This document shows positions 19,747 to 63,870 of a stretch of 64,000 bases of DNA, piece after piece. How positions within the stretch are numbered: position 1 is the first letter of the stretch; every line of letters begins with the position of its first letter. Under the pieces are notes generated by a model, which was not told the origin of the DNA, ran no database searches, and saw only the letters and a program-made list of their open reading frames with translations. Location: the sequence record DRR378314_1378; one strand, written 5' to 3'. Made by a program: the position numbers and the translations under genes.

Positions 19747-19796
19747 TTTAACTTTCCTTTAAATACACTTTAAACGCCTTTTAAACGCTATTTAAA
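19747..19796. repeat. TTTAAA array, 11-bp period (left end)
   Basis: TTTAA(A/C) at 19747, 19758, 19769, 19780, 19791. Confidence 0.85.
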
Positions 19797-19815
19797 TATT
19801 TTGAGCTGCCGATGT

Positions 19816-20958
19816 TTAAACTTTTTCGGCAGCTACAATTGTATTGAACGTTGGGCCTAGCTCTACGGTGATCATAAAACCTTGATACGATATTTTTACT
19901 TGGTTGCCTATATAAGCAAATGTATTTGGATTTTGAACAGCGTTCATTAGTTCGTGTATTTGCTCAATTGCTAGTTGGCCAGTTAAAAACTTTTCAATTT
20001 GAGCGCTGCTGACTGTAACAGCGCTACTATATATAGGTGCGTTTTTACGTGACAACTCGTTTAGTAAATTTACAGGCAAGTGCCCTAACGTAAATTGCTG
20101 GCTATCTGGTACCGACTTTTTAAGCGCTAACTTTGCTGCTTGTAAGTTTACCTGCTTTATATAGTACTGCTGAGATTTTAAAACTGCTTCGTTAAATTGT
20201 GGTACCGCTAACTTTTGAATGTCAGTTGATAACGTCATAACTGATTTACCCGCTGCAATGTCTGCACCTAGCCATGCTTTACCAGGATTATAATCCCAAC
20301 CCAAATCAATGCCTGGTAACTTACTCAGTTCTTCGCCTGTTGATGGGTCTACCACTTTAAAAGACTCAGTAAACTTTTTAACTGCTTCTGGCTTAGTTAC
20401 TGATAATCCCATGCGTGCAATATCACGCGCATTAAGTGATACCACCTTACACCTGCAGTTATAACCATTTGGCGGATAATGTGTATCCCAAAACGGATGA
20501 TCTACAGGCAGTAAAATGTAATTCCACTTACCGTGTTCAGGTCTTACACGGCTATCACCAGCTGTTAAGTATAATAAATATGGCCTGCGCTCTTTTAAAC
20601 GTTCTTGTTGTTGCCAACGGCCAGCTGCACGCGCAGTGTTTTTATTGTTTTGATATATAACTTTAGTACGCCAGCCCCGTTTGCCATTGTATGACCAACC
20701 GTGATCATCAACTATTTTGTCAAAGCGCTTTCTAAAGTCCGATATTGTCTCGCCATCACTAATCGCTTTATCTACTGCTTTATATAGCTCGTTTATAATT
20801 TCGATTTGTGTTGCACCGGCAACGGTAAATGCTTTGGCGTGAACTAAGCCTTGTAAGTCTTTATATGACTCACTAGTAAGCTTAATTTTGTCTTTGAAAT
20901 GAGAAATGGCTTCCTTGAACTTAACAAGGTCGCCATATTGTGGAGCTGGTAAGGCCAT
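19816..20958 (-). CDS. Mu gp30 (F)-like minor head morphogenesis protein
   Basis: AFTVAG, DSRVRPEH, YPPNGYNCRCKV and GWDYNPG motifs. Confidence 0.9.
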   Translation of the reverse strand: MALPAPQYGDLVKFKEAISHFKDKIKLTSESYKDLQGLVHAKAFTVAGATQIEIINELYKAVDKAISDGETISDFRKRFDKIVDDHGWSYNGKRGWRTKVIYQNNKNTARAAGRWQQQERLKERRPYLLYLTAGDSRVRPEHGKWNYILLPVDHPFWDTHYPPNGYNCRCKVVSLNARDIARMGLSVTKPEAVKKFTESFKVVDPSTGEELSKLPGIDLGWDYNPGKAWLGADIAAGKSVMTLSTDIQKLAVPQFNEAVLKSQQYYIKQVNLQAAKLALKKSVPDSQQFTLGHLPVNLLNELSRKNAPIYSSAVTVSSAQIEKFLTGQLAIEQIHELMNAVQNPNTFAYIGNQVKISYQGFMITVELGPTFNTIVAAEKV

Positions 20959-20959
20959 A

Positions 20960-21502
20960 TTAGTGCACTTTTAGCGACTGTTGAATGTCTTGAATTTCGT
21001 TTCTACGTGAATTATCACGGCTATTACCAAAGAAGAAATTCAATATTGACGCTACAACGGTGCCCAAAATAAAGCCCAAAATGGTGTCTGCAAAGCGTGT
21101 TGCGGTATCTGGTATTGTTAAAAACGTTATACAGCCTATGTATATAACCGTTGCAACCGACCAAAACCACGCATAGTAATAAATGAAGCGTTTAGAAAAC
21201 TTATCATCTTGATTAAGTGCCTGTATCTGCATGTTGCGGGCGCTTTGGGTATTTTTAAACGCTAAATCATCAAGCTCTTTTTCACGGTTTAATACCAGCG
21301 TTTTGAACTCGTTTTTAAAGGCTTGTGATTGTTGAATACGTTCAAATGCCTGTTGTGGTGTATCACCGTTGGTTAGGTTCTGCGCCATATCAAGCACTTT
21401 TGAGGCCACTTTAGATCCATTGTCGCCCCCTATCCAACTGCCTATTTTTTTATCCAGGCCTGTGAGCTTTGCAAGGCCGAGTGCTATTGTAATTGGGTCC
21501 AT
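20960..21502 (-). CDS. Holin-like membrane protein
   Basis: SARNMQ motif followed by two TM helices and FFFGNSR. Confidence 0.6.
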   Translation of the reverse strand: MDPITIALGLAKLTGLDKKIGSWIGGDNGSKVASKVLDMAQNLTNGDTPQQAFERIQQSQAFKNEFKTLVLNREKELDDLAFKNTQSARNMQIQALNQDDKFSKRFIYYYAWFWSVATVIYIGCITFLTIPDTATRFADTILGFILGTVVASILNFFFGNSRDNSRRNEIQDIQQSLKVH

Positions 21503-21504
21503 AG

Positions 21505-21948
21505 TTATACCTTTATATAGTCATCGTAAGATTTGCCGTCAATTTTAATAAGCTCTAAACCTTCAAGCTTTTTATACTGACGAACGAGGCTTTTAGCGGT
21601 TGTAAAATCACATGTGTTGTACTCAGTTTTTTCATACAACTCTGGCATTTCTTTTTTTGCACGGCGCTTACCCCATACTTTTTCTGCATCTTTTATTGAT
21701 TTGGCTGTGTATTTGGCGCGGGTTCGTTTGCGCCAAAGATCAGGGATACATGTAGGACGCTCATTGTCTTTAGAGTACCAGCCGCCCTTAATTACATCGT
21801 CTACGTAAACTACTAAGCTTGTTTTAGACTCAGATACGCGCCCGCGTGTAACTGTTATTTCAAACTCACCGTATTTGAAAATAACAGAGCCAAAAAAACC
21901 TGCTAAGTGCTTCTCTATCTCTATCCACTGCTCTTTTGTGATGGCCAT
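21505..21948 (-). CDS. Hypothetical phage protein
   Basis: Within the operon, with a plausible RBS. Confidence 0.6.
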   Translation of the reverse strand: MAITKEQWIEIEKHLAGFFGSVIFKYGEFEITVTRGRVSESKTSLVVYVDDVIKGGWYSKDNERPTCIPDLWRKRTRAKYTAKSIKDAEKVWGKRRAKKEMPELYEKTEYNTCDFTTAKSLVRQYKKLEGLELIKIDGKSYDDYIKV

Positions 21949-21958
21949 AAGCGCCCCG

Positions 21959-22573
21959 CTACAGTTTTGCTATATCGAGTGAAATTGCTTGTTCAATACC
22001 TTTATCATCTTGCTTGTAAAAGCGGATAAAACGGCTCGAATCAACCACACCAACAGACTCTGCAATAATGTTCATGGCTTTGGTCCATTTGCCTGAATCG
22101 TCTGAAATTTCGAGTTTACGCAGGGCTAAAATGCGTTGAGGATTAAGTGATCCTTGCTTATCGGTATTGAATGTTTTGCTTACAATGGCTTTAATGTTTT
22201 GATTGCCGCCTTCGGTCCATTCGTCCAGGCATTGATCAATTAACTCTTTAGCAAGGCTAAGTTCTGGGCCAAGTTCAATGCGCTCTTGGGTTTGGAGTGT
22301 TACTTTTAGTAGGCTATCAAAAGTGCGCAGCGTCACATTCCCTTTTTTACCGCCTAAACTAACGCCATGCTCTTGCGCTAATAGCTCTATAAAGTCGTCG
22401 GCTTCGGCCATTAAGCTTTGCTTAAACTCTGCCAGTGCTTCTTGCATTTCAAGGGCTTTATCAATGGCTTTTTTAACAAACTCATCTTTGATCAAATCGG
22501 TTGGTTTAATGTTGGCAACGGCTACTAAATTACCCTTCCCATCTTTTAAGTAACCTTCAGGAACATTATTCAT
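21959..22573 (-). CDS. DUF3164 family Mu-like phage protein
   Basis: GGKKGNVTL...AKELIDQCLDEW...FIRFY motifs. Confidence 0.8.
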   Translation of the reverse strand: MNNVPEGYLKDGKGNLVAVANIKPTDLIKDEFVKKAIDKALEMQEALAEFKQSLMAEADDFIELLAQEHGVSLGGKKGNVTLRTFDSLLKVTLQTQERIELGPELSLAKELIDQCLDEWTEGGNQNIKAIVSKTFNTDKQGSLNPQRILALRKLEISDDSGKWTKAMNIIAESVGVVDSSRFIRFYKQDDKGIEQAISLDIAKL

Positions 22574-24065
22574 CGTCTATCTCCACAGTTTTAGAATTAG
22601 CCTCGTTCATGCCTGCCATAAACTCATACTCCATTGCTGTTTGAGCAACGTCTGCTAGTGCTGAGTCTGAAATATCAGGGAATTGCGAGGTTATTTTTTG
22701 CTTAAGTTCGTCCAGGCTTTTAGATGCCTGAGCAAATTGAAAAATCTGTTTGATGGTGTCGTCACTCGCGTGATCAAACACATCAAATTCGTTGGTTAGC
22801 TCTACGGCATCCATTTGTTTTTTGGCAAACTCAGTTTTAGCAGCCGTGGCTATGCCTTGGCCTTCATCGGGTACCTCAAGGATTACTTCGCCATCTTTTG
22901 GTTTTGGTACACCCAGTTCTTGATAAGCCCAGTCTTCACCTACAGGCACAATACGGGCTGTTTCGCGTACGCGGGTTACTGTGTCGGTGTTGATCTCACG
23001 CTTGTCTTTAAAGATGAATTTAGGAGGCTCACCGCCATCAAAATTTACTGTATGAAGTGAATTTAAAAGCTGGTTACGAAAAGAGGCAACAAGTGCCCTG
23101 TCTGAGCGTTGATTATCGCCTGCACGTTTTGCGTGAGTTTCACTGGCTGCACGTGCACCACCATTTTTTTGCTCGGTTGCTAGTGTTTGGCTGGTAAGCG
23201 CTTTGCTTATTTCAGCATTACAAAAGTTAACAAGGCGCTCTGGTACTGGCTCGCCAGATATTTTGCTTTCAATAATATCAATGCTAGTGTCATCAGGTAT
23301 GGCAGCAATGCCATCACTCACCAGCTTAGCTAAGCCATCTAATAAATTTTCAATGTCTTTGTCTTTACTGGCGATTGGGTATTTGCCCACGGGAAATGGA
23401 ATACCAAAGCGTTCGCACAGCTGTACAAAAAACTTAAAGCCGCCGTGTTTAAAGGTCCACGGCCAAAAGCAACTACTTAATAATGCGATACCATACGGGT
23501 TTTCTGCGCTTGGCATGTGGCGAACGCATGACCAGCGTCGTTGATCGACTAACTCGCCTTGTGGGTTTTCGCTGGTTTTTACAAGCAGCTCGTGATCACT
23601 ATTAAACGCAAAACGGCTGTTGCGCCAAGTCTCTACATATTCGGGTTGCCAATGGCCCTCGTGCTTAATGTACTTGCCCAAGTGGGTCACACTAAACCCG
23701 TTTAAAATAGCGCTGTAATTGTGCCAATCCATATCGGCCCATTCTGTATGAGCACACGGTTTACGCGCAAAAAACGCTTTAGCTAGTTCATAACTTTTTA
23801 AGCTGGCGGCATCGTCACCGCCTGGTACTAACTCGGTATTAAAGCTAAATAAACCGCTACGTAGCGAGCGCAGTTCACCAATAACATGGGCATCACGGGC
23901 TATTTCTTCATAAATAGCGGTGTTTTTACCTGCGCGACGCAATATTGGATCAGGGTTTGGTAGCTCAGTAATAAGCGACGTTAGGCTTGGGTCTATACGG
24001 TTTTGGTCAAACATACGCGTAAGTGCGGCGTATGCTGTAGATTTAATGCGTGGCTTGCTATACAT
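22566..24065 (-). CDS. Portal protein (Mu gp29 / DUF935)
   Basis: RDAHV, NPYG, ERFGIP.PVGKY and EISKAL..QTL motifs. Confidence 0.9.
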   Translation of the reverse strand: MYSKPRIKSTAYAALTRMFDQNRIDPSLTSLITELPNPDPILRRAGKNTAIYEEIARDAHVIGELRSLRSGLFSFNTELVPGGDDAASLKSYELAKAFFARKPCAHTEWADMDWHNYSAILNGFSVTHLGKYIKHEGHWQPEYVETWRNSRFAFNSDHELLVKTSENPQGELVDQRRWSCVRHMPSAENPYGIALLSSCFWPWTFKHGGFKFFVQLCERFGIPFPVGKYPIASKDKDIENLLDGLAKLVSDGIAAIPDDTSIDIIESKISGEPVPERLVNFCNAEISKALTSQTLATEQKNGGARAASETHAKRAGDNQRSDRALVASFRNQLLNSLHTVNFDGGEPPKFIFKDKREINTDTVTRVRETARIVPVGEDWAYQELGVPKPKDGEVILEVPDEGQGIATAAKTEFAKKQMDAVELTNEFDVFDHASDDTIKQIFQFAQASKSLDELKQKITSQFPDISDSALADVAQTAMEYEFMAGMNEANSKTVEIDDE

Positions 24066-25797
24066 GATAGCCCCTTATTTGTTTGGTCACTTTGCGGCTA
24101 TTAACACGGGGAATACCACCCGCACCAGTGCTGGCTATCATCCATAAAATGGCTAAGCCACAGCTTAAATCGTAGTGATGGTTTGTTTGCTTCTCAGGCC
24201 AGTTTTCAAGCTCATCAAGAAGTAACCGACACCGTGAATGAAAGGCAATCTGTGCGGGTGTATTCGTTACATAAGTTTCTAATGAGCCTATACGTTCCTC
24301 AGCAGGTATGGTTGCTGTAACACCGCGTAACGGCAGTGCTATACCTTGCTCTAGGCCTGTGGTAATAAATTGGCTGCGCATAAAATCAAAGGCGTTGTTG
24401 TTTTCAAAGCCCCACACGCGGCAGTTATATTCTTTTTGCGCGCGTATTAAATCGTTTAATAAGCGGCTGGTACCACGCACTTTACGGCTTTCGTACTCAA
24501 CGTGTAGTTTTTGTAATTCATTGGAGTAAAAGCCCACTAATATTGCGCTGGGGTCGGCTTTTTCGGTTTTGCCCATACTTGGATCACATGCGCCGTAAGG
24601 TATCCATTCGTTTAAGCGATCAACCCAAAAATCAAACTGGTAAAATATGGCTTCTTCGTCGCTTTTGGCAATGCCTTGCATCTCGCGGTTAAACTCACGT
24701 TTATTAGCCGCCCACATACACATTAAATCGTAAAGCGAACGTACACTCGGCCAACTAGTCGTAGCACCCTTAAGCATTTGCTTTTTGCGCTTGATCCAAA
24801 ACTTAAACGACGGTTTTTGCTCTGTTGAAACCGCTTCACCTTTGGCTGCGGCACGTTTTTCAAAGCGTTTGTCGTCATGCACCATTAAATCGCGGCATTC
24901 TTCCCATAGGTCCATGCGTTCAGGCATTTGCTCGATGGCTTTAAAGCGGTGAACTATGTGCCCTGGTGCTTCTTCAGCACGGCTTATTGGGTCATCGTTG
25001 TTTAAAACTGTGTTTACCCCTAAGAATTTTACGGTGCCATCAGGTGGGCCAAGGTATTGCACGGCTGCTTCTAGAAAGCGCCAGCGGTTATCACGCTCAG
25101 TAGGCGATTTTGCCTCGGCATCGGTAATAATGTCATCGGATAGCAGTAGCTTAGGGCGGCTGGCACCATGGAACGTACCGCGTACAGATTGCTCAGCACC
25201 GCGGCTTTCAAAGCGCACACCTTGGGCTGTTACAAATTCGCCTAACTTCCAAACTGGGGATTTTTGACATACTTCAGGGAAGTCTAACGCCAAGTTATTA
25301 TTGTTAAGCAGTTCGGTCTTAACCACCTCGAGTGTTTTTGTTGGCATTTTGGTTTCAGCGCCAAACAAAATAATAAAGTCGATGAATTGGGTTATTTTGG
25401 CAAGGCCCAGGTCTTTGCATATATCAGGGTCTTGCAGTAGTGCTTGTACGGCGACATAAACGGGCGCTATTTTTACGCCAAGGGTACTTTTACCCTCACC
25501 ACGTGGGGCAACAAACCAGTTTTTCCAGCCGTTTTTTAGCTTAAGTGCTTCTGGGAACCAGTTCATAAAGTAGCTTTGGAATTCAGAGGCCTCTTGATCG
25601 TCATCAAGCCACATATGATGTGGAAAATACGTATACACAAAAAACTCAAAGTCGCCAGCTAGCACCCGTTTGCGGCGCTCTTTTACAGCTGCAGGGCTTG
25701 GGTCAATATTGCGCTCTTTGGCTTCAATATCACGGCGTAGTGAGCCGGTGATTTGTTCTATTTCAGCTAAGAACTTACGTGAATTCATATCGGCCAT
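24058..25797 (-). CDS. Terminase large subunit
   Basis: APRGEGKST, RPKLLLSDD and ACDPSMGK nuclease motifs. Confidence 0.9.
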   Translation of the reverse strand: MADMNSRKFLAEIEQITGSLRRDIEAKERNIDPSPAAVKERRKRVLAGDFEFFVYTYFPHHMWLDDDQEASEFQSYFMNWFPEALKLKNGWKNWFVAPRGEGKSTLGVKIAPVYVAVQALLQDPDICKDLGLAKITQFIDFIILFGAETKMPTKTLEVVKTELLNNNNLALDFPEVCQKSPVWKLGEFVTAQGVRFESRGAEQSVRGTFHGASRPKLLLSDDIITDAEAKSPTERDNRWRFLEAAVQYLGPPDGTVKFLGVNTVLNNDDPISRAEEAPGHIVHRFKAIEQMPERMDLWEECRDLMVHDDKRFEKRAAAKGEAVSTEQKPSFKFWIKRKKQMLKGATTSWPSVRSLYDLMCMWAANKREFNREMQGIAKSDEEAIFYQFDFWVDRLNEWIPYGACDPSMGKTEKADPSAILVGFYSNELQKLHVEYESRKVRGTSRLLNDLIRAQKEYNCRVWGFENNNAFDFMRSQFITTGLEQGIALPLRGVTATIPAEERIGSLETYVTNTPAQIAFHSRCRLLLDELENWPEKQTNHHYDLSCGLAILWMIASTGAGGIPRVNSRKVTKQIRGYHV

Positions 25798-26303
25798 TAG
25801 TCGCTTAACTCCTGATCGAGCTTAGGCGCAAAGGCCGTGAGTATTTCAACAAACTCAGGGGCAAAGTCTGGGTATTTGGTTGATACAAACTTAGCGAGTA
25901 TTTTAACGACCTCAGCAGCTATAGTGCGTTTTTCAAGGCGTTTATTACCACCTGATATCTTCATTACCTTGCTCATCATGTCGGTGAGTGAGCTGAGTAT
26001 TTTGGTACGTTGGTCAAGTGATAGCGCTGCACCTTCAGGCGATTTTAAAAGCTCAAAGGTTTCGTTAACTTGAATGGTGAATTCTTCAATAAAGTCGGTG
26101 GTAAACTCCCCTGCTGTGCCTTCACTGCGGCGGCTTGCTGCGCGGGCTAAATCCCAATCGTCGCCGTTGTCTTTAGCTTCCATTTTCCAGCGTCGTGCTG
26201 TGCCGTCGGCCACGCTGTGTTTTATGGCAGCCACACTTAACGCGAGCAGCTCGGTTACATAGCTGTGGCGTATAGCGTTTTTCTTTTCTGCAGGGTGCGC
26301 CAT
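25797..26303 (-). CDS. DUF1804-like terminase small subunit
   Basis: MAH... HTH and TARRWK...GDDWD.ARAA; directly upstream of the large subunit. Confidence 0.8.
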   Translation of the reverse strand: MAHPAEKKNAIRHSYVTELLALSVAAIKHSVADGTARRWKMEAKDNGDDWDLARAASRRSEGTAGEFTTDFIEEFTIQVNETFELLKSPEGAALSLDQRTKILSSLTDMMSKVMKISGGNKRLEKRTIAAEVVKILAKFVSTKYPDFAPEFVEILTAFAPKLDQELSD

Positions 26304-26641
26304 TAGTTCATCAACCCATTTTTTACAGCATAGGCTATCAGCGATACAGCTAAGCCCGCAGAGCCACCCATAGCAGCCACCTTAACGCGCTGGTTAGTGA
26401 GCTTTTCTTCAACCTTCGCTAAGCGCTCGTCTTGCTTATTAATGGCTGTGACTTGGCGTTTTTCGCTTTTTTCTATATCAATCTTTAAGCTATCTGTTAT
26501 TTCTTTTTGACGTGCTTCGCTTTTTTCAATGCTTTGGTGAATATCAGCTTTAATGTCTTTTAAGTCATTTAAAATAGCCGCCTGACTACCCTGTATTTCA
26601 CCGATGGCTTGAAATAATAAGTTTTCTTGTTCTTGATTCAT
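26303..26641 (-). CDS. Coiled-coil protein with C-terminal TM (lysis/packaging region)
   Basis: IGEIQG motif, coiled coil, hydrophobic tail. Confidence 0.55.
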   Translation of the reverse strand: MNQEQENLLFQAIGEIQGSQAAILNDLKDIKADIHQSIEKSEARQKEITDSLKIDIEKSEKRQVTAINKQDERLAKVEEKLTNQRVKVAAMGGSAGLAVSLIAYAVKNGLMN

Positions 26642-26650
26642 GGGTGGTCC

Positions 26651-27094
26651 TTACGGTTTAAATACTTTAATGCCCGTCCATGTAGGCGTGCGTACATCAA
26701 AATGAAACCAACTTACTTGCCCTTCAATGGCAGTGATGTAGGGGAATTCTTGCGGGTGGGCTAATACGTAATCACGAACTTGCTGAGCGGTGTAATTAGT
26801 AAAACTGCAATCGAATGCTTTACCTAGCTTGTGCTGGCTGCGTTTTGCGCCAATAGTGCAATCAAGTGGGCGATAGCCACGATATTGATTAGCGCCACCC
26901 CAGCTCCAGCTATTTACAGTGCATGGGCCAAATGTGTCGCGTAACTTTTGCAACATACGCAATGCGCGGTCATCAAATAGGTGGTTCAAAAACAAAGGGT
27001 CGTCTTTATAAAGCTCAAATATGGCTTTTGGTACTAATTCTTGAAACGTAAAGCTTGGGGCAGTCGGTACTACCACTTTTCTTTTAAGCGCCAT
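26651..27094 (-). CDS. Peptidase M15-type endolysin
   Basis: RGYR...SQHKLGKAFD...WFHFD zinc-peptidase motifs. Confidence 0.8.
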   Translation of the reverse strand: MALKRKVVVPTAPSFTFQELVPKAIFELYKDDPLFLNHLFDDRALRMLQKLRDTFGPCTVNSWSWGGANQYRGYRPLDCTIGAKRSQHKLGKAFDCSFTNYTAQQVRDYVLAHPQEFPYITAIEGQVSWFHFDVRTPTWTGIKVFKP

Positions 27095-27335
27095 GCTGCT
27101 GAGTCCTCATTTTAGTTAAATGTTGTTTTGTTAGGACGTAACAGGCAGGTAAGCGGGTATTACGCGCCGGCTTTTTGTTCGCTGGGTTTAGCAGCGATTT
27201 AACGCGGGTACGCAATGCGGGCAGGTCTTTTAGCGGGCAACGGCGAGAAATTGCTATTTGCTCGGCTTTAGAACTGGCCTTAATAATTTGTTGAGCTAAA
27301 AACTCAATAAATGGCGCATGCACTGTATTTGTCAT
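27084..27335 (-). CDS. Hypothetical protein (first gene of lysis/packaging operon)
   Basis: ORF overlapping the endolysin start. Confidence 0.5.
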   Translation of the reverse strand: MTNTVHAPFIEFLAQQIIKASSKAEQIAISRRCPLKDLPALRTRVKSLLNPANKKPARNTRLPACYVLTKQHLTKMRTQQHGA

Positions 27336-27458
27336 GCTGGTAGTAAATCAATTTAGGAGGTTGGGTAACACTGTAAAGTTGTTTGCGGCTAGGGCTTTCG
27401 GGCTGGTCTATTAGGTTAAATTAAAAAGGCTTGCATCTGCAAGCCATAAATAAAGAGA

Positions 27459-29114: not shown

Positions 29115-29147
29115 ATGAAGTTCCTTTTTAATTTAATACAAACTATG

Positions 29148-29345
29148 TCAACTCCTATAACTTATCAAGACTTTATAAGCCTCCCTGTACTCATCCATTA
29201 AACCCGTTACATCTAACCCCATAACTTTTCGTTGGTTAATGTAACGGGAGAATAGGTTTAAACCGTATTCGTACTGCCACTGCTTTGGCTTTTTACCGCC
29301 GCTAAGTTGCAGCGCAGTGAGCAGTACAAAGTTATTGTTTTGCAT
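29148..29345 (-). CDS. Hypothetical phage protein
   Basis: Coupled to the upstream gene. Confidence 0.5.
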   Translation of the reverse strand: MQNNNFVLLTALQLSGGKKPKQWQYEYGLNLFSRYINQRKVMGLDVTGLMDEYREAYKVLISYRS

Positions 29346-29583
29346 GTTTATGCTTAGGGATGCTTTGAATTCTTACTTCATTACCGTCGGTAATACGGAT
29401 GAACTCAAACCAACAATGAATGCACACAGTGTGATCGTTATAAACCTCGCCTTCTGGTGGGCGCATGGTTTTTAAAGTGTTATCGCACTTAGGGCATTGG
29501 TAGTGAATAACCAACTTATTACGGGTTAATACACCTTTAAAAAATGCTTCGCATTCTGCTTTAATATCGCTTAACAGTTCCAT
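29332..29583 (-). CDS. Small zinc-finger protein
   Basis: CPKC...CIHC. Confidence 0.55.
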   Translation of the reverse strand: MELLSDIKAECEAFFKGVLTRNKLVIHYQCPKCDNTLKTMRPPEGEVYNDHTVCIHCWFEFIRITDGNEVRIQSIPKHKHAKQ

Positions 29584-29591
29584 ATTGCCCC

Positions 29592-30948: not shown

Positions 30949-30961
30949 GATTAAATCCTTA

Positions 30962-30989
30962 TTTAAAATGTGTTTAAACAGCGTTTAAA
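30962..30989. repeat. TTTAAA array, 11-bp period
   Basis: TTTAAA at 30962, 30973, 30984; a partial unit at 30951. Confidence 0.75.
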
Positions 30990-40209: not shown

Positions 40210-40210
40210 G

Positions 40211-51398: not shown

Positions 51399-51423
51399 CG
51401 TTACCAGTGTTTTATTATGAAAC

Positions 51424-56000: not shown

Positions 56001-59000
56001 ATTTAGCCCTTGCTGATATAACCTCACGCACAACCGAGCTTGAGCAAGATATTAACGCGGCCACGGGTATTATGGGTCAGTACGCGACCACCGCGTGGGT
56101 TAATGCGTTGGGTTATCAAACGCAAAGCAATGTACAAACGTTGATTGACTCGTTTAATGCTCAATACAGCATTGCCACCACGCTGCAAGAGTTTGCAGCG
56201 AATAATACAATTGTAAAAGCTAATACAGCACAACTTTGGATAGATGCCTCAGATGCGATTATTAAAAGCCAAGTCATCAGTGTTTTAAACAGTGAGGATG
56301 GTGTAAACCAACGCATAAGTAGTGCTGAGCAAAGCATTGATGCCATGGCGGGTGAAATTAGCCAAAGCATTACTCAGGTGGCGGGCCTTGCCCTTGATGT
56401 TAAAGACCAAAGTTTGAGTGACATACTCAATGAGTACAATCAGCTTATACAAAATAATGAGTTGGCAGCACAAAGTGTTAGCCTGGCTATTGCAAACCAA
56501 AAGCTCACGGCTGTAACAGACGATATTAAGTCACTCGCAACGCAAACATTGGAATTAGCGGGTTTATACGGTCAAAATGCGGCATTTTTAACAAGCCTAA
56601 ACAGCGCCTTTGCAAATGAAGCAACTGCCCGTTCAACCACAGAACGTGAGCTGCGCGCGGAAATAATTAACGAAGGAACACGCTCTATAGCCCAAGCGAA
56701 TGAACGCTTAGAGGCAACCGTGGGGTATTGCATAGATGCTGATGGCAACCGTGTTGATGAAGCAGATGCCCTAGCCTGTATTGCTGCGGGCCATGAATGG
56801 ATAGCGGGCCCATTAGTTGAATTAATTAATAATTACACGGCTGTATTTGTTGGCGCTCAAGGCTACCAAACGGCGGCGAACGTGCAGCAGTTTATTAGCA
56901 CGTTTGATGGTCAATATGGCATTACGTCCCTCATTCAAACAATTAATGAAGAAGGAACAGTTTTAGATGCAAAAGAAGCTAAGCAATGGATTGATTCCTC
57001 AAACGGCACTATTGAAAACGTTATTACTCAGTATGTTAATAAACCAAATGGTATAAACGACAACATCGCGTTTGCGTATGACTTAATACAAGCTAATGCC
57101 GACGAAATCAGCGCCAGCGCCACCGCACAGCAACAATTATCGGCTCGTATGGATAACGCCGAAGCGGATATAAATACCCTTGATGCGGTCATTGTCACAG
57201 AGCAACAAGCGCGTGCAAGTATGGGGGCACAGCTACGCATTGAGTTCCAAACGCAAGATTTAGCGATGCTGGCCACCGCCAATGAATATACCCGTGCAGT
57301 AACTGGTTATTGCGTTGATGCCAATGGCGAACGTGTTGATCAAGATGATGCCGTGCAATGTGAACTTGACGGCCATACTTGGGTTGACGGCCCTGCCGTG
57401 CAGCGCGCCGTTGAAATTGGTGCAGCTTGGGTAACGTTGCAAGGCTATCAAACACAAAGTAACGTAAGCCAACTGCTTGATACCTTTAATGCCACGCATC
57501 AAATAAGTGCGACACTGCAAGAGTTTAACGACAACAACACTATCACTAAAGCCAACAATGCCCAGCAGTTTTTAAATGGTAAAGACGCTTATTTTGAAAC
57601 CCGCATTACTGCCTTTAATGCCGCAGATGGTGGCGTTGATGCTAAATTTAGCGATGTCTCACAACGCCTCGATGCTGCCGAAGGGTCACTATCTACCAGT
57701 ATTGTGCAAATTCAAGGACTAGAGCAGAGCCAGCAGTTTAATGACCTAAACGAAGTCATAGCCGCGTATAATCAGCTATTAGATAACAAAGAGCTGTCAG
57801 AACTTAAAATAAAAGCCGCGTTCGCTAACGAAAAGCTACAAGCCCAAACGAGCGAACTTGACAGCATTGCTCAGCAACAGCTTGAACTAGCCGCCTTATT
57901 CGAAAGCAATAACGCGATTATTACATCCGTAAGTAGTGCTTTTGCTAATCAATACCAAGCAAGCGTGGTGCGCGACCAACGCTATCAAGCCACGTTTGAC
58001 AATGTAACCGCGCGCTTTAGTGATGTAACCACAGCCATTGCCACAATTGATGAAGCCAATACGCTACGTGATATTGAGTTTGAATCGTTTGTTGCCGATA
58101 CCATTGCCAGCTTTGACGAAGTAAGCGAAACCTTTGCGAGTCAAAATCAAGCCTTCAGCACGCTACAGCAAACACTGACCGCTAAAATTGAAGCGGACAC
58201 CGAGGGCGCTAAAGACACCGCTATAGCTACAGCGCAAGAGTATACGCGCACCGCTGTGGGCTACTGCTTAAATGCACAAGGCCAAATCACCAGTGAAAAT
58301 GATGCGGTTAAGTGTGTTGCGGATGGTGGCTCATGGGTTCAAGGCCCATTGGCTGAATACATTGCCAATCTACAAATCAGCGACGGTGAAAACAGCGCCA
58401 GCATTAAACAGCTACGCCAACTCTTTACCACGGTTGATGGTAAGTTGGTTGCCCGTGGTGGCTGGACACTCGACAACAATGGCCGTGTAACAGGTATCGC
58501 TGGTTATAACGATGGTGTATTAGCCAGTATAGATATTGTGGGAGATATAATACGCCAAGGTGCGATGGTAGAGGGTACGTTTGTGCCTACTTCTTACGTT
58601 GATAATAGCGACCCACTGAAACCTCAGCATGTTATACGTGGGCGTTTAGTGCTGGGTGATGGTCACGAAGTTAAAAATCTTGAGGATATAAAAGCGCAAG
58701 ATGGTGCGGATGGAAAAGACGGGAAAGATGGTATTGATGGTCAAAACGGTGCAACTGGGCCGCAAGGTATCCCAGGGCCTAAAGGCGTGGATGGTCTATC
58801 TACCTATACATGGTTAAAGTATGCAGATAACGCCAATGGTTCGGGGCTTAGCAACTTACCCACTAACAAACAGTATATTGGCTTTGCTTACAATAAAACC
58901 ACGCCTACCGAGTCAACCAACCCCGCTGATTACAAATGGTCAAAAATAAAAGGCGAAGATGGCGCAAACGGTACGGATGGTGTCCCTGGTGCCAAAGGTG

Positions 59001-60154
59001 CTGACGGCCAAACAACTTACACATGGATTGCCTACAGCGACAACGCCAGCGGTTCGGGGATGTATCAAATCCCTAACAGCAATACTAAGTACATTGGTAT
59101 TGCGGTAAATAAAATCACTGCTACGGAGTCAACAAACCCCGCAGATTATACCTGGTCTTTATCTAAGGGGGCTGATGGTGCAGATGGTCGTAATGGTACA
59201 GATGGCCAAAATGGTCGTGATGGAAATGATGGCGCAAATGGCTCCCGTGGTGCGGGCAAGTATGAAGTGGCTACATCAACAGGTGCGTGGTCAGACGCCA
59301 CAGCGAACAACGCGCTGCCCGATGGCATCCCTGTTGTTGGTGACATTGTTAATATTTTAAAAGCCAGTGACCCAACGGTCGAAACCGCTAAAAAATACAA
59401 TGGCTCAGCGTGGGTCGCGTATACGTTAATCGTCAACGGTAACAGCCTGTTTAAAGGCTCAGTCGATGGTGAGGCATTCAAAGCGAACACCCGCATTGAA
59501 TCACCACGTATTGATTTGATAGGTGGCGCATTTATGAAAATTGAACTCGCCAGCGGCTTTGGACCCGATAATTTGTGGTACTGGTACGGGCCTAAAATCA
59601 TGAGCAATGGGCTACCCCACCTTTCGGCTCTGCGTAAATCTAACGCTCTTGAATGGAAAGACACCGCAGGAAACGCGTATTTTGGTGGCGCAATCACAGC
59701 GGGCATATTAAGTACCGCACTGAGTACAACCAGTCTATCGTCAACAGCCAGCGTAGTTATTGGCCCATTTGGTAGTAACGGCGGTGTGGTTGATATTGTG
59801 TGCTCGTTATTAGCCACATCACGAGGAACAGGAAGGTCGGATAACCCGCCAGGCCCACCGAGCGCTCCCGAATATACCATACACCTTTATGAGCAAATTA
59901 GTGGTCAATGGGTAAGCCGCAAGATGCAGTCCTACACAGGTACCACTTACTATGATGATGGTTACGACTTTGAATCAAGGAAATATCTTTGGATGGCCAG
60001 TCAATCTTGCTCGGGATCATTTACTTACACAGATAACAAACAAACCACCGTCGATCGAATCTATAAATTAGCTATCACCCGTCGCACAGGTTTCATAACT
60101 TCCGCGTCATATTCACCGACACAGAAATTAACTTTAGTATCTCAAGAGGACTAA
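53015..60154 (+). CDS. Giant central tail fibre / host-specificity (lambda J-like) protein with FN3, internal repeats and collagen-like segments
   Basis: Start MSKVV; N-terminal tail-tip domain (VWDPR, AAINVCDE, YTTNG); FN3-like YNFRVRSVN; G-X-Y runs near 58700-59260. Confidence 0.85.
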   Translation: MSKVVDTVVNVVDDVFDYTGLGALWDSLAPDLPENDLATLGQGLQKGIDQPRRITFGRDRVGGVIAHQAEVEKGDKKWMQLIVLINGAAIDALEEIYIADKRLSEYPSESWDYSLSDGRQTTANTKAVAKMAGWTSEHVGFGQSYIFIEIENNREVFEDGISDMGFLIRGARVWDPRDTSQDPDDESTWLWSQNAVLCALHYVRFYGAYEVPFSRLPLQWWIAAINVCDEEAEFTDAEGVVTTEPRYTTNGSFTFSTKPIEVLNQLEACFAGKIFRQMGQWYVRVGAWYGNPTYTINQDDVHGNIKIKWHADLRDRANVVRATFTDPQQNYDRTDAPPVVSDGYQTIDNQVLEKSISLPFVRSSTTAQRLATIHLEQTRLGEIELPLKHKGLAAAVGRTVLLNLPNESINNKIYRVIERRFRLDGGVTLMCIEDGPDLWADNIIPGAQDLTPNSDYLVGKPQPIFDVRVTIDGDGNGVIKWNHPTPLAVNEYDIEFINTAANEPVFKTSVTYTQVTIPNLQLGEYTARISAKNIFGQRSLLVAVQFSVLTPTLPTVYVTADYNQITLTAEIAAAGIGTAFEWEFLGTAAQPHNGERILAQIYNRIGLQSETEYNFRVRSVNHLGASDWVNVTATTTTVDLTEYINELPLTKLSEEAQTLIADIDAQVDRLRPETENNLPSLIAKNINAITGLAEKVQVIDAENPNNLQQQLADSNSKINDLERVTEVLDASIDDSLPALIKLNNIAIEQQRLAQQDMSLSLLNVTGAYTNWRNEYERRSLNNERLIDAAVYVDPDTGTIINRAYAIAEESFNSATVMIEGVNSKITLASQQIQQSQNRLSQAEATLLVQSAQINQKATFAEVDGQIAGALAALQPAYSWQFNTGNEGFDPDSHNAQGYIVVTTQISSPVISYNADENPMFRLRIRKHAGATWKGDIKFNGGTTTLHLPEPTSNEFETLTLDATGAAGYTGTITSLEFDLGPCDIDFIEVGKRGANDLALADITSRTTELEQDINAATGIMGQYATTAWVNALGYQTQSNVQTLIDSFNAQYSIATTLQEFAANNTIVKANTAQLWIDASDAIIKSQVISVLNSEDGVNQRISSAEQSIDAMAGEISQSITQVAGLALDVKDQSLSDILNEYNQLIQNNELAAQSVSLAIANQKLTAVTDDIKSLATQTLELAGLYGQNAAFLTSLNSAFANEATARSTTERELRAEIINEGTRSIAQANERLEATVGYCIDADGNRVDEADALACIAAGHEWIAGPLVELINNYTAVFVGAQGYQTAANVQQFISTFDGQYGITSLIQTINEEGTVLDAKEAKQWIDSSNGTIENVITQYVNKPNGINDNIAFAYDLIQANADEISASATAQQQLSARMDNAEADINTLDAVIVTEQQARASMGAQLRIEFQTQDLAMLATANEYTRAVTGYCVDANGERVDQDDAVQCELDGHTWVDGPAVQRAVEIGAAWVTLQGYQTQSNVSQLLDTFNATHQISATLQEFNDNNTITKANNAQQFLNGKDAYFETRITAFNAADGGVDAKFSDVSQRLDAAEGSLSTSIVQIQGLEQSQQFNDLNEVIAAYNQLLDNKELSELKIKAAFANEKLQAQTSELDSIAQQQLELAALFESNNAIITSVSSAFANQYQASVVRDQRYQATFDNVTARFSDVTTAIATIDEANTLRDIEFESFVADTIASFDEVSETFASQNQAFSTLQQTLTAKIEADTEGAKDTAIATAQEYTRTAVGYCLNAQGQITSENDAVKCVADGGSWVQGPLAEYIANLQISDGENSASIKQLRQLFTTVDGKLVARGGWTLDNNGRVTGIAGYNDGVLASIDIVGDIIRQGAMVEGTFVPTSYVDNSDPLKPQHVIRGRLVLGDGHEVKNLEDIKAQDGADGKDGKDGIDGQNGATGPQGIPGPKGVDGLSTYTWLKYADNANGSGLSNLPTNKQYIGFAYNKTTPTESTNPADYKWSKIKGEDGANGTDGVPGAKGADGQTTYTWIAYSDNASGSGMYQIPNSNTKYIGIAVNKITATESTNPADYTWSLSKGADGADGRNGTDGQNGRDGNDGANGSRGAGKYEVATSTGAWSDATANNALPDGIPVVGDIVNILKASDPTVETAKKYNGSAWVAYTLIVNGNSLFKGSVDGEAFKANTRIESPRIDLIGGAFMKIELASGFGPDNLWYWYGPKIMSNGLPHLSALRKSNALEWKDTAGNAYFGGAITAGILSTALSTTSLSSTASVVIGPFGSNGGVVDIVCSLLATSRGTGRSDNPPGPPSAPEYTIHLYEQISGQWVSRKMQSYTGTTYYDDGYDFESRKYLWMASQSCSGSFTYTDNKQTTVDRIYKLAITRRTGFITSASYSPTQKLTLVSQED

Positions 60155-60157
60155 ACC

Positions 60158-63100
60158 ATGGCAGCATTTACAGCTAGTCAAGCCAGCGTGACCAACGGCT
60201 CAAAAGTGGTCACAATCAACAGCGGTGAAAGCACCGCAAATATACGCAAAGGTGATTTTTTAGTTCTTGGTACCTTTTCCCCCGTGGAGATTTTACGCGG
60301 CTATGTCAGCACGGGGGGTGTGCAGTCGCTAGAGCTAATTAAAGCGTGGGACAGCGGTAATCAAAGTAACCAAAAAGCGATTGTGATACCAACAACGGTT
60401 GAGGTTCGTACCGCTGTTACGGCATTACAAAATGCTAACACCCTCGTAAATGATAATTTTGCAGCTATGCAAGACTGGCAAACAAAAACAGGCACCGTCA
60501 CATTTACAAACCAAGATGGCACAACATCGACCATTAAAACCCTCAAGCAAATGGAGAATGAAGCTAACGCCCAATTAGCAGAATATCACCCCTACCCATG
60601 GGCTATGCGTAAAGTAGAGTTTGAAGCTCTCCGATCAGCTAATAATGAAAAGTATGCTGCCAGTGGGTTTGTCCATAAGGGTAAAGCCAGAAGTAGTGCA
60701 TCAGGAGGTATCGCAGGTGATGGCCTATACTCTTATATAGCTGCCCCTGTAAATACGTTAAGGCTTGGTTGTAGTTCCGAGGTGTCGGATGCATTTGGTA
60801 AAAGTAAAAAATCAACAAGTGTGATTTCTATTGCAGGTGTAGATACTCTATTAGATTCAATGTCAACGGCATTTTCTGGATATTGTTTTATAAAACTCCC
60901 TCCCGCTGAAGATGGCACACGCACGTATGATAGCGCCACAGGTATTCCAGTCACACACGCAACACCAGCAATCGCGTTTGCGAGCGAAACTGCGACCAAT
61001 AAAGTGGTTACAGATCGTGTAGATACGTGGGGATTTGAAGCCTTTTTACGTGAAATTAATGATGCTGACCCGTTTGTTTATGACTATGGCCTGATTCAAA
61101 GCCGCGCTACAAGTATCAATGGTGTGTCCACAGTTGATGATAATGTGCGCCCAATCACATATTTTGCGTGGTACGGGGGTGATACAACTAGTCGAGGTAA
61201 AGGTGTTAATTGGCAAACAGCTACTGAAGCACAACGTATAGCTATTGCAAGTGACCCTTCGAACAATATCTACTTTGATGATGCCACAGGCAAGTTTTAT
61301 CAATGGTGTATCCGTGGTCGCAGTTTTGCTGGTTTGGGAAATGGGGATTGGTCGAATACAGACGCAAGCGACCCTGCGTTGAATACTGGTTTACAATTTA
61401 ACAGCACCCTTTCAGTTGTTAAACCCCAAGGTATTAAAGATGCCGTAAATAAGTCGATTGCTAGTTATACCGATGACTTGATTGGTGATTTTTTAAATTA
61501 CAATAATAGTTTTATTCAAGCTGAGGGCTTTAAAAGCTCAAGAGGCACTTTTGCTGTAAGGGCGGGTACAATCTCCAATAATAACCAATACGCAGTAAAT
61601 GGTCAGTGCTACTTCCTCGTTTGCGGCACAGTAAATAGGCTAAACCAAGGAGCTTATCACCCTAGTTTAAACCCTTCAGGATCAAGAAAGTGGCGAGATG
61701 TCAAAAGTGGCGGACCTGTACTTAATGCATCTGACGAATGGCAAGGTATTGAGAACACGCAGTGTGTTCCTACCAAATCATCAGATGCTTTTAACGTGCA
61801 GCCAACAGGTGTGGTGCCTCAACCATCAGCATCATCAACTACGGGATTTATAGATGGACCCGCAGGCAGCGGCCGACCAGACGGCCGTTTCTATGATGCC
61901 ATCTACGCAAGCGGCCAAGGCGGTGTCTGTCGCGATATGCGTTATTCAGCGTGGGGTTTAACTAAAGAAGATTTTGCCGAAGCGGATTTAGCAATTAAAT
62001 CGGGTGAGTACCGAGGGCGTGAAACTTTGTTTAAAGTATGTTTTAAATTCGCCACTCCATTTTATTTTAGTAACTCTAATGTAGGTAGTAATGTTTATTT
62101 CAGAACTGAGGCAAACAACGCTGGGTCATTGTTTGACTTCGAAACTAATGGAATAACACGTCAGGCATCAGTAATAGTGTATCAACCACAAACAGGCTAT
62201 GTGGGTTATGGTGAACTTCATCCATCTACAGGACATATTAAGCTGTTAGGCCGTAAAGATAATCTATTAACTAAATCTAGCGGTTCATATACAGGAAACA
62301 TGACCAGACTGGATAGGTGTTATATTTTAGAAGTTGAGCCAGTCAGTAGTGTTGCTGGAGAGTTTACACATACTGAGGTTATAGGTGATCCAGCTAACAT
62401 CTTACAGTGTGATGCTTTAAAAGACGGATGGGTTGGAAGTTGGAATTCTAAAATACCTGATGGTTTGGGTGTAATGGATTCACCTTTCACATATCCTGTT
62501 TCAAAGAGTGACTCTGGTACTTACTCTCAAATAGGTAATGCAAATAATGTTTTAAGCTCAGGGGCTATGGGTATTGACATTACTAAAAATATCAACGGTG
62601 GAAGTTTGCTTAATACGTTAGACCGTATCGCTGTTTGTCACTATAAAACAAAAACAGGTATAACCAGAAACAGTGCTAATAGTGAAATTTACGGTGGCAC
62701 TGAAGGTATTGGTGGTGTTTTTATAACCCAAGGTTATTTAGAGTGGGCGGGAGTTGGTCTTGGTTATTCCCTAACTGGTAAGGTTTTAGATTCCACTGGT
62801 GATGGTAACAGCCTATTTTTCAACAACATCCCGTTGGAGGATTTTAAGATATACAATGGCAAGCTAGGGGGTTGGACAAGTAATGAAAAAGCCAACCCTA
62901 CCCATACTACCACCTACAATTTTGGACCTCCTGAGAATAGTCCCGTGGCTTTCAAAGCGCTAAGCTACAACGTAGCAGAAAACCAGCAAGGCTTTATTAA
63001 TTACGCATACACAGAGCTCACTCACAACGGCACAGATTGGGGTGATGATGGCAAAATTCACCTCGTAAATAATCAAACAACCATGCTCGATGAAAATGGT

Positions 63101-63166
63101 AATACTGTTTTAGTCGGCACAGCACAAATCGTAGAACCACTTGGGTGGATTAAAAATGACAAATAA
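60158..63166 (+). CDS. Side tail fibre / receptor-binding protein
   Basis: N-terminal ASVTNGSKVVT anchor-like motif; G/S/T/N-rich; follows the J-like gene. Confidence 0.7.
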   Translation: MAAFTASQASVTNGSKVVTINSGESTANIRKGDFLVLGTFSPVEILRGYVSTGGVQSLELIKAWDSGNQSNQKAIVIPTTVEVRTAVTALQNANTLVNDNFAAMQDWQTKTGTVTFTNQDGTTSTIKTLKQMENEANAQLAEYHPYPWAMRKVEFEALRSANNEKYAASGFVHKGKARSSASGGIAGDGLYSYIAAPVNTLRLGCSSEVSDAFGKSKKSTSVISIAGVDTLLDSMSTAFSGYCFIKLPPAEDGTRTYDSATGIPVTHATPAIAFASETATNKVVTDRVDTWGFEAFLREINDADPFVYDYGLIQSRATSINGVSTVDDNVRPITYFAWYGGDTTSRGKGVNWQTATEAQRIAIASDPSNNIYFDDATGKFYQWCIRGRSFAGLGNGDWSNTDASDPALNTGLQFNSTLSVVKPQGIKDAVNKSIASYTDDLIGDFLNYNNSFIQAEGFKSSRGTFAVRAGTISNNNQYAVNGQCYFLVCGTVNRLNQGAYHPSLNPSGSRKWRDVKSGGPVLNASDEWQGIENTQCVPTKSSDAFNVQPTGVVPQPSASSTTGFIDGPAGSGRPDGRFYDAIYASGQGGVCRDMRYSAWGLTKEDFAEADLAIKSGEYRGRETLFKVCFKFATPFYFSNSNVGSNVYFRTEANNAGSLFDFETNGITRQASVIVYQPQTGYVGYGELHPSTGHIKLLGRKDNLLTKSSGSYTGNMTRLDRCYILEVEPVSSVAGEFTHTEVIGDPANILQCDALKDGWVGSWNSKIPDGLGVMDSPFTYPVSKSDSGTYSQIGNANNVLSSGAMGIDITKNINGGSLLNTLDRIAVCHYKTKTGITRNSANSEIYGGTEGIGGVFITQGYLEWAGVGLGYSLTGKVLDSTGDGNSLFFNNIPLEDFKIYNGKLGGWTSNEKANPTHTTTYNFGPPENSPVAFKALSYNVAENQQGFINYAYTELTHNGTDWGDDGKIHLVNNQTTMLDENGNTVLVGTAQIVEPLGWIKNDK

Positions 63167-63791
63167 ATTAGACACTATTTTAGAGTTTATCGTCCTCGGT
63201 GACGAACAAGCCCCGGTTCTTAACGAGCAGGGTTTACCCACGCTCAAACAGGGGCCAATAGCCAAACCCTTAGACGGACTTATTGCCAAGGGCAAAATCA
63301 GCAACATTGGCATGTTTGCTGAGCTACAGGCACAAAAAGAGCAATGGGATTGGGCGCGTGATTACTACGATTATTTGGTTGAACTAAACCGAGTAACCGA
63401 GTTCAACGCCAATTTACCCAAGCCAGTGGCCCATGAAGATGGCACACTGACCAAAGTTGAGCCCCTACCAGAACCAACAGCGCCAGAGCGTCCCGCTCTT
63501 AAAACTGTTGAACAAGTGCTGGCACCGTATACTAAAAAAATTCAAAAGATGAAGGGGCTTGAGTTTAAGGACGTAAAGGTTTCGCTAAGCGAGACAAATC
63601 AAAATGGGTTGTCAGCTCTGAAGACGGCACTTGATTTGGCAAAAGAGTTTGGAGTAGAAGAACAGTTTTTTCCCATCAAATTCAATGCTGAAACATCAAA
63701 CGGAATTGAAGTTGTAGACTTGTTAAGTGAGACAGAGTTTAAACAGTTTGGTTTAAGTTTTATTTTGGCGCGAAAAGCATTCTTTAGTTAA
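63141..63791 (+). CDS. Tail fibre-associated/assembly protein
   Basis: Last gene, coupled to the fibre gene; ends ARKAFF. Confidence 0.55.
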   Translation: MGGLKMTNKLDTILEFIVLGDEQAPVLNEQGLPTLKQGPIAKPLDGLIAKGKISNIGMFAELQAQKEQWDWARDYYDYLVELNRVTEFNANLPKPVAHEDGTLTKVEPLPEPTAPERPALKTVEQVLAPYTKKIQKMKGLEFKDVKVSLSETNQNGLSALKTALDLAKEFGVEEQFFPIKFNAETSNGIEVVDLLSETEFKQFGLSFILARKAFFS

Positions 63792-63793
63792 AA

Positions 63794-63870
63794 TTTAAAA
63801 AAGGGTTTAAACAGTGTTTAAACCCTACCCTTTCTAAATGTAAGTAAACATCTTTTAAACAATGTTTAAA
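63794..63870. repeat. TTTAAA arrays at right end (includes hairpin AGGGTTTAAAC-AGT-GTTTAAACCCT)
   Basis: TTTAAA at 63794, 63806, 63817 and 63854, 63865. Confidence 0.75.

Follow-up and report, generated by a model that had tools for sequence, protein, structure and literature searches.

Phased TTTAAA arrays along a Mu-like prophage of Pseudoalteromonas and their resemblance to the Mu strong gyrase site's right arm

The 64,000-nucleotide stretch of record DRR378314_1378 analysed here (the window, in whose numbering all coordinates are given unless stated otherwise) contains a Mu-like transposable prophage, along which the hexamer TTTAAA recurs in short arrays at about one copy per helical turn. 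The arrays are non-random, phage-specific and under purifying selection at the DNA level, synonymous sites included, and they are cis-acting DNA elements, neither RNA nor coding features. By analogy with phage Mu's strong gyrase site (SGS) we propose, with a rough probability of 0.4, that they are gyrase-wrapping or bending modules, like the right arm of the SGS, which have been multiplied and would organise the prophage for transposition. Six arrays had been pointed out in an initial annotation of the window and all six were confirmed (Table 1), but several of the units counted there have one mismatch, reading TTTAAC at 19747, 40193 and 45039 and TTCAAA at 52814. The arrays are 28–77 bp long and are found every 3.5–11 kb along the prophage and beside both of its ends, at 0.005, 0.26, 0.46, 0.57, 0.75 and 0.996 of its length.

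The window contains 128 TTTAAA hexamers, a number reached by none of 100 dinucleotide shuffles (84.7 ± 9.8). Adjacent pairs at 11 or 12 bp number 16; in 300 shuffles preserving dinucleotides inside 500-bp blocks such pairs averaged 0.15 and never exceeded 2. All of the close spacings (11 bp, 12 cases; 12 bp, 4; 22 bp, 7; 33 bp, 6) fall within 19700–64000, and the flank at 1–19699 contains 23 hexamers with no pair 70 bp or less apart. Across five whole genomes of Pseudoalteromonas, the genus of the host, 28 of 31 triple arrays lie inside a Mu-like prophage; among the remainder one was found 0.5 kb past the prophage right end and two elsewhere. A host regulon is ruled out, since in these genomes triple arrays hardly occur outside the prophage. 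In the output of Tandem Repeats Finder (TRF) the arrays appear only as weak period-11 rows with scores of 35–42.

A search of IMG/VR gave 27 related loci with transposases 73–97% identical to that of the window. At least one triple array is present in each of the 23 whole related records, and the control pattern, read backwards, is found in none of them. In ten full relatives the arrays occupy equivalent places, at about 19.77, 30.97, 32.8 (a pair), 40.18, 45.03, 52.81 and 63.8 kb, and a further conserved site near 27.4 kb, at which a 3-unit array with a terminator after it stands in the relatives, is replaced in the window by a gene of 551 codons. The left subterminal array, which is located 213 bp inside the left end and just beyond the stop of the Mu F-like gene, has four exact units in eight of the ten and is not in the records of G019 and G020; an extra TTTAAA near it, at 19815, lies within a hairpin loop. 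The array that overlaps the MuA-MuB fusion gene's stop codon, with the next gene's ribosome site directly downstream, has at least three exact units in 19 of the 27 loci and two or three in all ten full relatives, and the pair within the MuA-MuB coding sequence recurs in eight. The near-central array, at 0.46 of the prophage length, separates variable low-GC cargo from the head-gene module; it maps to 40177–40188 in nine full relatives, while in the tenth, G022, an unmapped array of three units occupies this interval. The 45017 array is present in all ten with two to five exact units, in some of them with extra intergenic units inserted. At the right end, where the array lies 107 bp inside the prophage and its two blocks flank a TTCTAAAT repeat at 63832, arrays are present in G004, G005, G011, G014 and G019, the remaining records stopping earlier or diverging.

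Selection on the DNA itself is seen in the six-unit array at 52780, which lies within a coding sequence matching Pfam family DUF6950 with an E-value of 2e-34; the initial annotation had labelled this gene NlpC/P60-like, an assignment that was not seen. Among degenerate codons with invariant amino acids, the third position varies in 0 of 7 cases within the hexamers and in 43 of 48 elsewhere (Fisher p 3.9e-6; the count excludes G011 and G031, for a frameshift and indels). Invariant columns account for 27 of 30 in the hexamers and 159 of 381 elsewhere, and across the relatives the codons adjoining the hexamers drift with the hexamers unchanged. Given the amino acids, the codons of the array have a probability of about 0.006 under the codon usage of the phage. 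When compared with the array-less homologue of Vibrio phage ZX4290, the array corresponds to the most variable, gapped part of the protein. Downstream of the array there is no conservation beyond coding needs. In the G011 homologue a 2-bp deletion in a degenerate array unit leads to a frameshift. Chance, codon usage and tandem duplication are ruled out as causes by the shuffles, the synonymous-site test and the weak TRF scores together with the unrelated spacers. The initial annotation is upheld in taking the arrays as non-random and free of these causes, and in reporting none of them in the host DNA of the window.

The architecture of the arrays is uniform. Over 15 lineages, successive hexamers are spaced by 11 bp in 114 cases, by 12 bp in 12 and by 10 bp in 9, so that 114 of 135 spacings of 10–12 bp are exactly 11 bp and the helical phasing described from the window, mostly 11 bp with a few of 12, extends to these lineages. 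The 5-nucleotide spacers are 61% GC compared with 44% for the genomes. Each unit is palindromic, often GTTTAAAC.

Arrays of this kind are also found well beyond the immediate family. Scanning IMG/VR for four exact units yielded at least 115 stretches, at least 21 of them in the Pseudoalteromonas prophage family; many of the others are tandem repeats rich in AT, and a further group combines unrelated spacers with moderate GC. From the latter, 20 viral records were chosen by eye, and 13 of these have genes for a Mu portal, a Mu transposase C-terminal domain or both, while six of the other seven are fragments of 4–16 kb. The same hexamer is seen across phages with core proteins only 22–30% identical and with GC from 0.34 to 0.55. 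One of these phages, G037 (39.3 kb, GC 0.55), has the canonical Mu gene order and core proteins 23–44% identical, and carries arrays at both ends adjoining the end repeats, at the junction of genes A and B, at 0.51 of the genome and at two further junctions. In G029 an identical hairpin adjoins both the A|B-junction array and the TerL|portal-junction array; this hairpin, TTTCAGGCTGCCTGAAA, is found at each of three arrays (about 8240, 23045 and 36040 in that record), between the upstream stop and the array. In the distant relatives many arrays stand directly upstream of start codons, and some spacers contain a Shine-Dalgarno sequence. No such arrays are present in Mu or JBD5. The arrays are DNA-level architectural elements common to a broad group of Mu-like phages, and in titles and abstracts of the literature on TTTAAA with Mu-like phages or gyrase we found no account of them.

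The proposed link to gyrase starts from Mu, in which the annotated gyrase cut lies at 17879/80 (Mu numbering), between genes G and I, and past it come TTTAAA at 17894 (+15), TTTAAA at 17915 (+36) and TTTAAC at 17927 (+48), so that the right arm of the SGS reads TTTAAA-N15-TTTAAA-N6-TTTAAC. PMC10052514 describes the right arm as essential and the central position as best, with off-centre sites working worse, and according to PMC11626157 the AT repeats of this arm face the GyrA C-terminal domain. For E. coli gyrase, the genome-wide Topo-Seq motif of PMC6379681 has two 47-bp arms with a 10.75-bp GC/AT period and a consensus arm of TTTAA blocks separated by G/C runs. The window arrays resemble that motif in their 11.0-bp period, GC-rich spacers and similar length; the published motif, however, is degenerate, with indirect readout, whereas the arrays use one exact hexamer. 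The likeness to the Mu SGS lies in the phased TTTAAA-type AT blocks with GC-rich DNA between them and in the nature of both as cis-acting DNA elements of a transposable phage. As to position, the SGS follows gene G at mid-genome; in the window one array follows the G-like gene and another lies at 0.46, with further ones at 0.005, 0.26, 0.75 and 0.996, and relatives with few sites have one at 0.47–0.52. With phased flexible AT blocks over 28–77 bp, set beside the 35–50 bp or so expected of an arm, an 11-bp period and a spacer GC of 0.61 against 0.44, the arrays have the make-up of an SGS arm. On the other hand, the single site of Mu comes with a defined cleavage core, and the window has about eight arrays of two to six units at a strict 11 bp, some of them subterminal or intragenic, with no matching core detected.

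Cultured phages offer support from outside the window. Pairs were searched for in ten DUF3164-bearing phages together with Mu and JBD5, and TTTAAA-N5-TTTAAA was found at 0.47–0.52 of the record in five marine Mu-like phages (HS6, martha 12B12, MuM16-1, ZX4290 and 1.136.O). The mid-genome pair follows gene F or G directly in four of the five and lies about 1.9 kb after F in MuM16-1, and most of the five have further pairs near the ends or adjoining gene A. KS10 has one pair, off-centre, and none was found in Mu, JBD5, B3, KP12, RC1 or Phi06_2974 B. In the window, arrays lie near the centre (0.46) and directly after the G-like gene (0.57). This G-like gene, a Phage_tail_S match, does not follow F; it is situated between the gp36-like and gp37-like genes, and the array is directly 3′ of the displaced gene as the SGS is 3′ of G in Mu.

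From these resemblances the following mechanism may be proposed. In each array, of 30–60 bp, a very flexible TTTAAA block with its central TpA alternates with a GC-rich 5-mer on every helical turn, so that the DNA should bend easily in one direction and be suited to wrapping on a protein surface, its closest known counterpart being the essential right arm of the central SGS of Mu, which wraps the GyrA C-terminal domain. The arrays would draw in host gyrase, or would at the least hold tight bends or plectoneme tips in place, and the prophage would thereby be kept as a highly supercoiled folded domain in which both ends meet for replicative transposition. The module would have been multiplied to about eight sites, near mid-genome, after the G-like gene, beside the transposase-type repeats at each end and at other places. 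Gyrase as the reader, and supercoiling and end synapsis as the purpose, are what we infer by analogy with Mu. Nucleosome-positioning repeats of the type (TATAAACGCC)n, which have a 10-bp period and a left-handed wrap, share with the arrays a TA-centred flexible AT block alternating with a GC block on each turn, and with it anisotropic bendability, but the array period is 11 bp and not 10 bp; a period exceeding the helical repeat would fit a right-handed wrap, as on gyrase, or underwound DNA. That the same motif is retained despite differing end repeats, repressors and transposase N-termini, with none of the phage DNA-binding families compared tracking it, fits a conserved host reader or indirect readout.

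Several results weigh against gyrase. The E. coli matrix of PMC6379681 was validated on Mu, where its top score, at 17876, falls on the SGS. With this matrix alone the arrays rank in high percentiles, but at p<0.05 no more than 5 of 34 arrays outscore random windows of equal size, there is no enrichment of the presumed cleavage core next to the arrays (mean z −0.18 ± 0.17), the top peaks in the five cultured marine phages lie elsewhere, and the arrays do not match the E. coli gyrase cleavage motif of core plus arms. The Mu model with its single central site predicts neither eight sites nor sites 100–260 bp from the ends. The hexamer is invariant base by base and its 11-bp spacing is sharp, which looks more like direct recognition by an oligomeric protein, and the register of arrays and end repeats in G037, described below, hints at a link to the transposase complex rather than gyrase. 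Gyrase binding at the arrays is itself a proposal from sequence. Loading of gyrase or a nucleoid protein for domain organisation, one of the roles suggested in the initial annotation, has gained outside support from the same motif in the Mu SGS right arm and from the mid-genome pairs of cultured phages, but the gyrase matrix does not single out the arrays; self-insertion immunity and packaging, also suggested there, are speculative roles.

The positions of the arrays relative to the prophage ends bear on all of these readings. The bounds of the prophage, taken as the limits of similarity to G001, G004 and G005, are 19534, where the left end begins TGTAAGGGG, and 63977, where the right end finishes GGCGGCTTACA; they are bordered by a 5-bp target duplication, ATAGC, at 19529–19533 and 63978–63982, and relatives G004, G005 and G014 have 5-bp duplications of their own. 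Given these bounds the outer arrays are subterminal, and the earlier suggestion that arrays mark the ends has to be corrected: they lie beside or among transposase-type repeats with 22-bp spacing, the spacing also seen at the end sites of Mu. These TTCTAAA-type repeats (Table 1) are probably the end-binding sites of the transposase and distinct from the arrays. No transposase-type end repeats were found near the internal arrays, and the arrays do not share the consensus of the 22-bp terminal repeats that would make them att sites. The end repeats are of the TTCTAAA/TTCTAGAA type in the window and of the CTTTTGCACA type in G037, and the array unit is TTTAAA in either genome. The two end arrays of G037 keep an exact 11-bp register to the innermost end repeat, at 22 and 33 bp; in the window only the proximal right block does so, to within 1 bp. 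GATCATTCCTG occurs twice between the left end and the left array (19553–19745), alongside a TATAAT and a minus-strand open reading frame (ORF) of 43 codons, both of them conserved. G001 (L161/L162) has a tandem duplication of the terminal 37 bp of the left end at about 20627–20700.

Two of the array places coincide with a rearrangement of the genome. The left arm, some 20 kb from the repressor to gene F (19534–40209, as opposed to 40210–63977), is inverted with respect to Mu, JBD5, G037 and ZX4290, and this arrangement is common to all ten full relatives. The inversion has its junctions at the left subterminal and the near-central arrays, and relatives with canonical order carry a left-end array and a central array at those same two places. 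Because both junctions fall on array places, we infer from the sequences that the ancestral inversion took place between two arrays. The mechanism may have been short palindromic homology or gyrase-mediated illegitimate recombination, a recognised process, and the arrays may be recombination-prone, the family-defining 20-kb inversion being broken at the left-end and central arrays.

Since the arrays do not stand out with the E. coli gyrase matrix, a sequence-specific protein remains a serious rival to gyrase, and we consider it a possible, if somewhat unlikely, explanation that the arrays are cooperative sites for such a protein, encoded by phage or host, which would assemble into oligomers on one side of the helix and serve the prophage as an architectural or silencing factor. 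Models are provided by P2 Cox on cox boxes, ParR on 11-bp iterons and H-NS-type silencers on their nucleation sites. All six hexamer positions are invariant, synonymous sites included, the spacing is very sharp, a palindromic unit suits a dimer, and the arrays are absent from the host chromosome; the register in G037 and the result with the gyrase matrix point in the same direction. The P2 cox boxes, the 11-bp iterons of R1 parC and the dispersed centromere sites of N15 are short helically phased repeats that bind an oligomerising protein. They resemble the arrays in being short repeats placed once per turn, and the N15 sites are likewise dispersed along a prophage. The arrays differ from them as palindromic hexamers with unrelated spacers for which no Cox, ParR or ParB homologue was found. 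No members of the ParR, ParB, ParM or Cox/Xis families were detected with Pfam and PHROGs among 47 and 43 prophage proteins, a search in which remote homologues could be missed, and the element thus has no detected cognate gene for a partition centromere or Cox-type repeats. As it integrates by transposition, it needs no partition.

None of the candidate readers compared co-occurs with the arrays, which counts against a specific protein. DUF3164, proposed in the initial annotation, looked promising at first from its presence in G030, G031, G033, G034, G037 and G048 and its absence from Mu and JBD5, but it failed the co-occurrence comparison: it is present in B3, KP12, RC1 and Phi06_2974 B without any pair and absent from the array-bearing G029. 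GemA, another of the readers proposed there, is annotated in array-less Mu and/or JBD5, as are Mor and DUF1804, and DUF3102, also proposed there, was not detected in the window by Pfam or PHROGs. The Mu I-alpha domain (PF02316) was found in none of four relatives (G001, G005, G022 and G031) and not in G037, but it is present in array-less Mu, JBD5 and RC1; the N-terminus of the window transposase gave no PF02316 match. Repressor operators were also rejected, as the control region at 35685–35886 contains TTTCAAT/ATTGAAA palindromes and not arrays, and the arrays have neither the PF02316 partner nor the repressor/ner location of Mu operator or enhancer boxes. With core proteins and GC content diverging as widely as they do, a phage-encoded reader would have to be unusually conserved and yet undetected.

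Returning to gyrase, a broader form of the proposal, which we regard as unlikely, is that the arrays could form a distributed ‘topological code’ in a large Mu-like clade, in which exactly phased arrays at the ends, next to the transposase sites and in register with them, at mid-genome and at intervals would be read by gyrase and/or the transposition machinery, folding the prophage into a multi-loop supercoiled domain and maybe blocking self-insertion.

The transposition machinery might also be addressed in another way, with the arrays nucleating or regulating the MuB moiety, which is fused to MuA, or adding sites of transposase interaction, for a genome-wide target immunity against self-insertion. 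The spread of arrays at 3.5–11 kb and beside both ends, the presence of an array between genes A and B in G037, G029 and others and their near confinement to Mu-like elements (the 13 of 20 records, most others being short fragments) are consistent with this, and MuB prefers AT-rich DNA. We nevertheless hold it to be improbable: the arrays are unlike the end repeats of their own phage and stay as TTTAAA when the end repeats change from phage to phage, no arrays are present in Mu and JBD5 although both possess MuA and MuB, and attracting MuB would be expected to draw insertions, not repel them.

Still more doubtful is a role in transcription, as Mor/C-type activator sites, as UP-like elements of middle or late promoters, or as parts of terminators at operon borders. 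Several arrays do lie at module borders (before the lysis/packaging genes in relatives, and likewise ahead of the head genes, the tail genes and the tail-tip gene), some adjoin intrinsic terminator hairpins, and the prophage has one Mor-family gene. However, arrays also occur at both ends, in the transposase gene, within DUF6950 and at A|B junctions over ribosome sites, which sets them apart from Mor/C-dependent promoters. Within 19400–59399 there is no coding-strand sigma-70-like promoter in or just downstream of an array, and promoter-like sites show no enrichment (45 against 46.4 expected, and 26 against 40), nor do terminator-like sites. In the lysis operon the conserved promoter-like sequence, TTTACA-16-TAAATT, comes some 100 bp after the array and the terminator that goes with it, and the region downstream of the 52780 array shows no extra conservation. 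That the arrays act as RNA, with UUUAAA repeats as processing, translation or frameshift signals, can be all but set aside, for while UUUAAAC is a known slippery heptamer and distant relatives have many arrays directly 5′ of start codons, some with a Shine-Dalgarno sequence in a spacer, the unit is palindromic, arrays lie either side of genes on both strands and in untranscribed-looking end regions, the exact 11-nucleotide period has no rationale in RNA, and Rfam gave no match.

Table 1. Arrays, end repeats and associated genes of the Mu-like prophage in the window
Feature	Position	Strand	Sequence units	Location and remarks
Mu-like transposable prophage	19534..63977			44,444 bp
End repeat, left	19551		TTCTAGAA	left end; matches right-end repeats
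Left subterminal array	19747..19796		TTTAAC 19747; TTTAAA 19758, 19769, 19780, 19791	11-bp spacing
551-aa gene	27459..29114	−		low GC
Array at MuA-MuB stop	30962..30989		TTTAAA 30962, 30973, 30984	
MuA-MuB fusion gene	30985..33882	−		965 aa
Two-unit pair	32810..32826			within MuA-MuB coding sequence; pair at 32807–32831 in 8/10 full relatives
Near-central array	40151..40209		TTTAAA 40151, 40171, 40182, 40204; TTTAAC 40193	
Minor pair, 22 bp apart	41640..41667			within head protease gene; pair at 41650–41651 in 5/10 full relatives
Mu G-like gene (Phage_tail_S)	44584..45021			
Array across G-like stop and next start	45017..45055		TTTAAA 45017, 45028, 45050; TTTAAC 45039	
Minor pair, 33 bp apart	49826..49864			within tape-measure gene; pair at 49842 in 4/10 full relatives
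DUF6950 coding sequence	52612..53022			
Six-unit array	52780..52841		TTTAAA 52780, 52792, 52803, 52825, 52836; TTCAAA 52814	within DUF6950 coding sequence
Right subterminal array, two blocks	63794..63870		63794, 63806, 63817 (63794–63822); 63854, 63865 (63854–63870)	
End repeat, third	63831–63839		TTTCTAAAT	between right array blocks
End repeats, two of 15 nt	63931..63967		TTCTAAAATCTAGCG and TTCTAAATTCCTGCG	right end; 22 bp apart

By Pfam and PHROGs the prophage is Mu-like and of siphovirus type, with Mu F, Mu portal, TerL, DUF1804, Mor, GemA and head and tail genes, a CI/LexA-type repressor and the fused MuA-MuB protein. The fusion comprises rve and Mu-transpos_C domains followed by HTH_3 and AAA domains, and lacks the Mu DNA-binding (I-alpha) domain at its N-terminus; residues 1–965 are matched by all 27 related loci. 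Genes of unknown function with low GC (0.32) fill 36595–40052, from the repressor to the central array, and two further ORFs of unknown function lie at 40211–41390, between the central array and the head protease gene. This variable region, 36595–41390, is shared with none of G001, G004 and G005, and in JBD5 the corresponding gap between G and the protease gene is occupied by anti-CRISPR genes. The 551-residue gene has weak P-loop matches (KAP, AAA_22; E about 0.01) and, from its sequence, looks like an inserted cargo or defence-type gene. On the left, a PM2-like corticovirus prophage at 8757–19408, with a major capsid protein (phrog_8536), a packaging ATPase and a replication initiator of 636 residues, stops about 125 bp short of the Mu-like prophage. 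Positions 515–2234 of G004, in the flank of that provirus, are 69–76% identical to host-side DNA at 4758–6505 of the window, even though the phage transposes, and the sequence match may reflect the same neighbourhood or a shared island.

The single SGS of Mu is a textbook example of a sequence that organises a chromosome domain, and why it is superior to other gyrase sites is still debated. New here is that the arrays are multiplied, subterminal and intragenic. They provide a natural series built from one hexamer and one spacing, with two to six units, in central, subterminal and gene-embedded positions and under measurable selection, and this series makes it testable which features drive gyrase wrapping or plectoneme pinning in vivo, and whether transposable phages use several sites for the meeting of their ends or for shielding themselves. 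If, on the other hand, the reader is a specific protein, the arrays would point to an unknown architectural factor common to many Mu-like phages.

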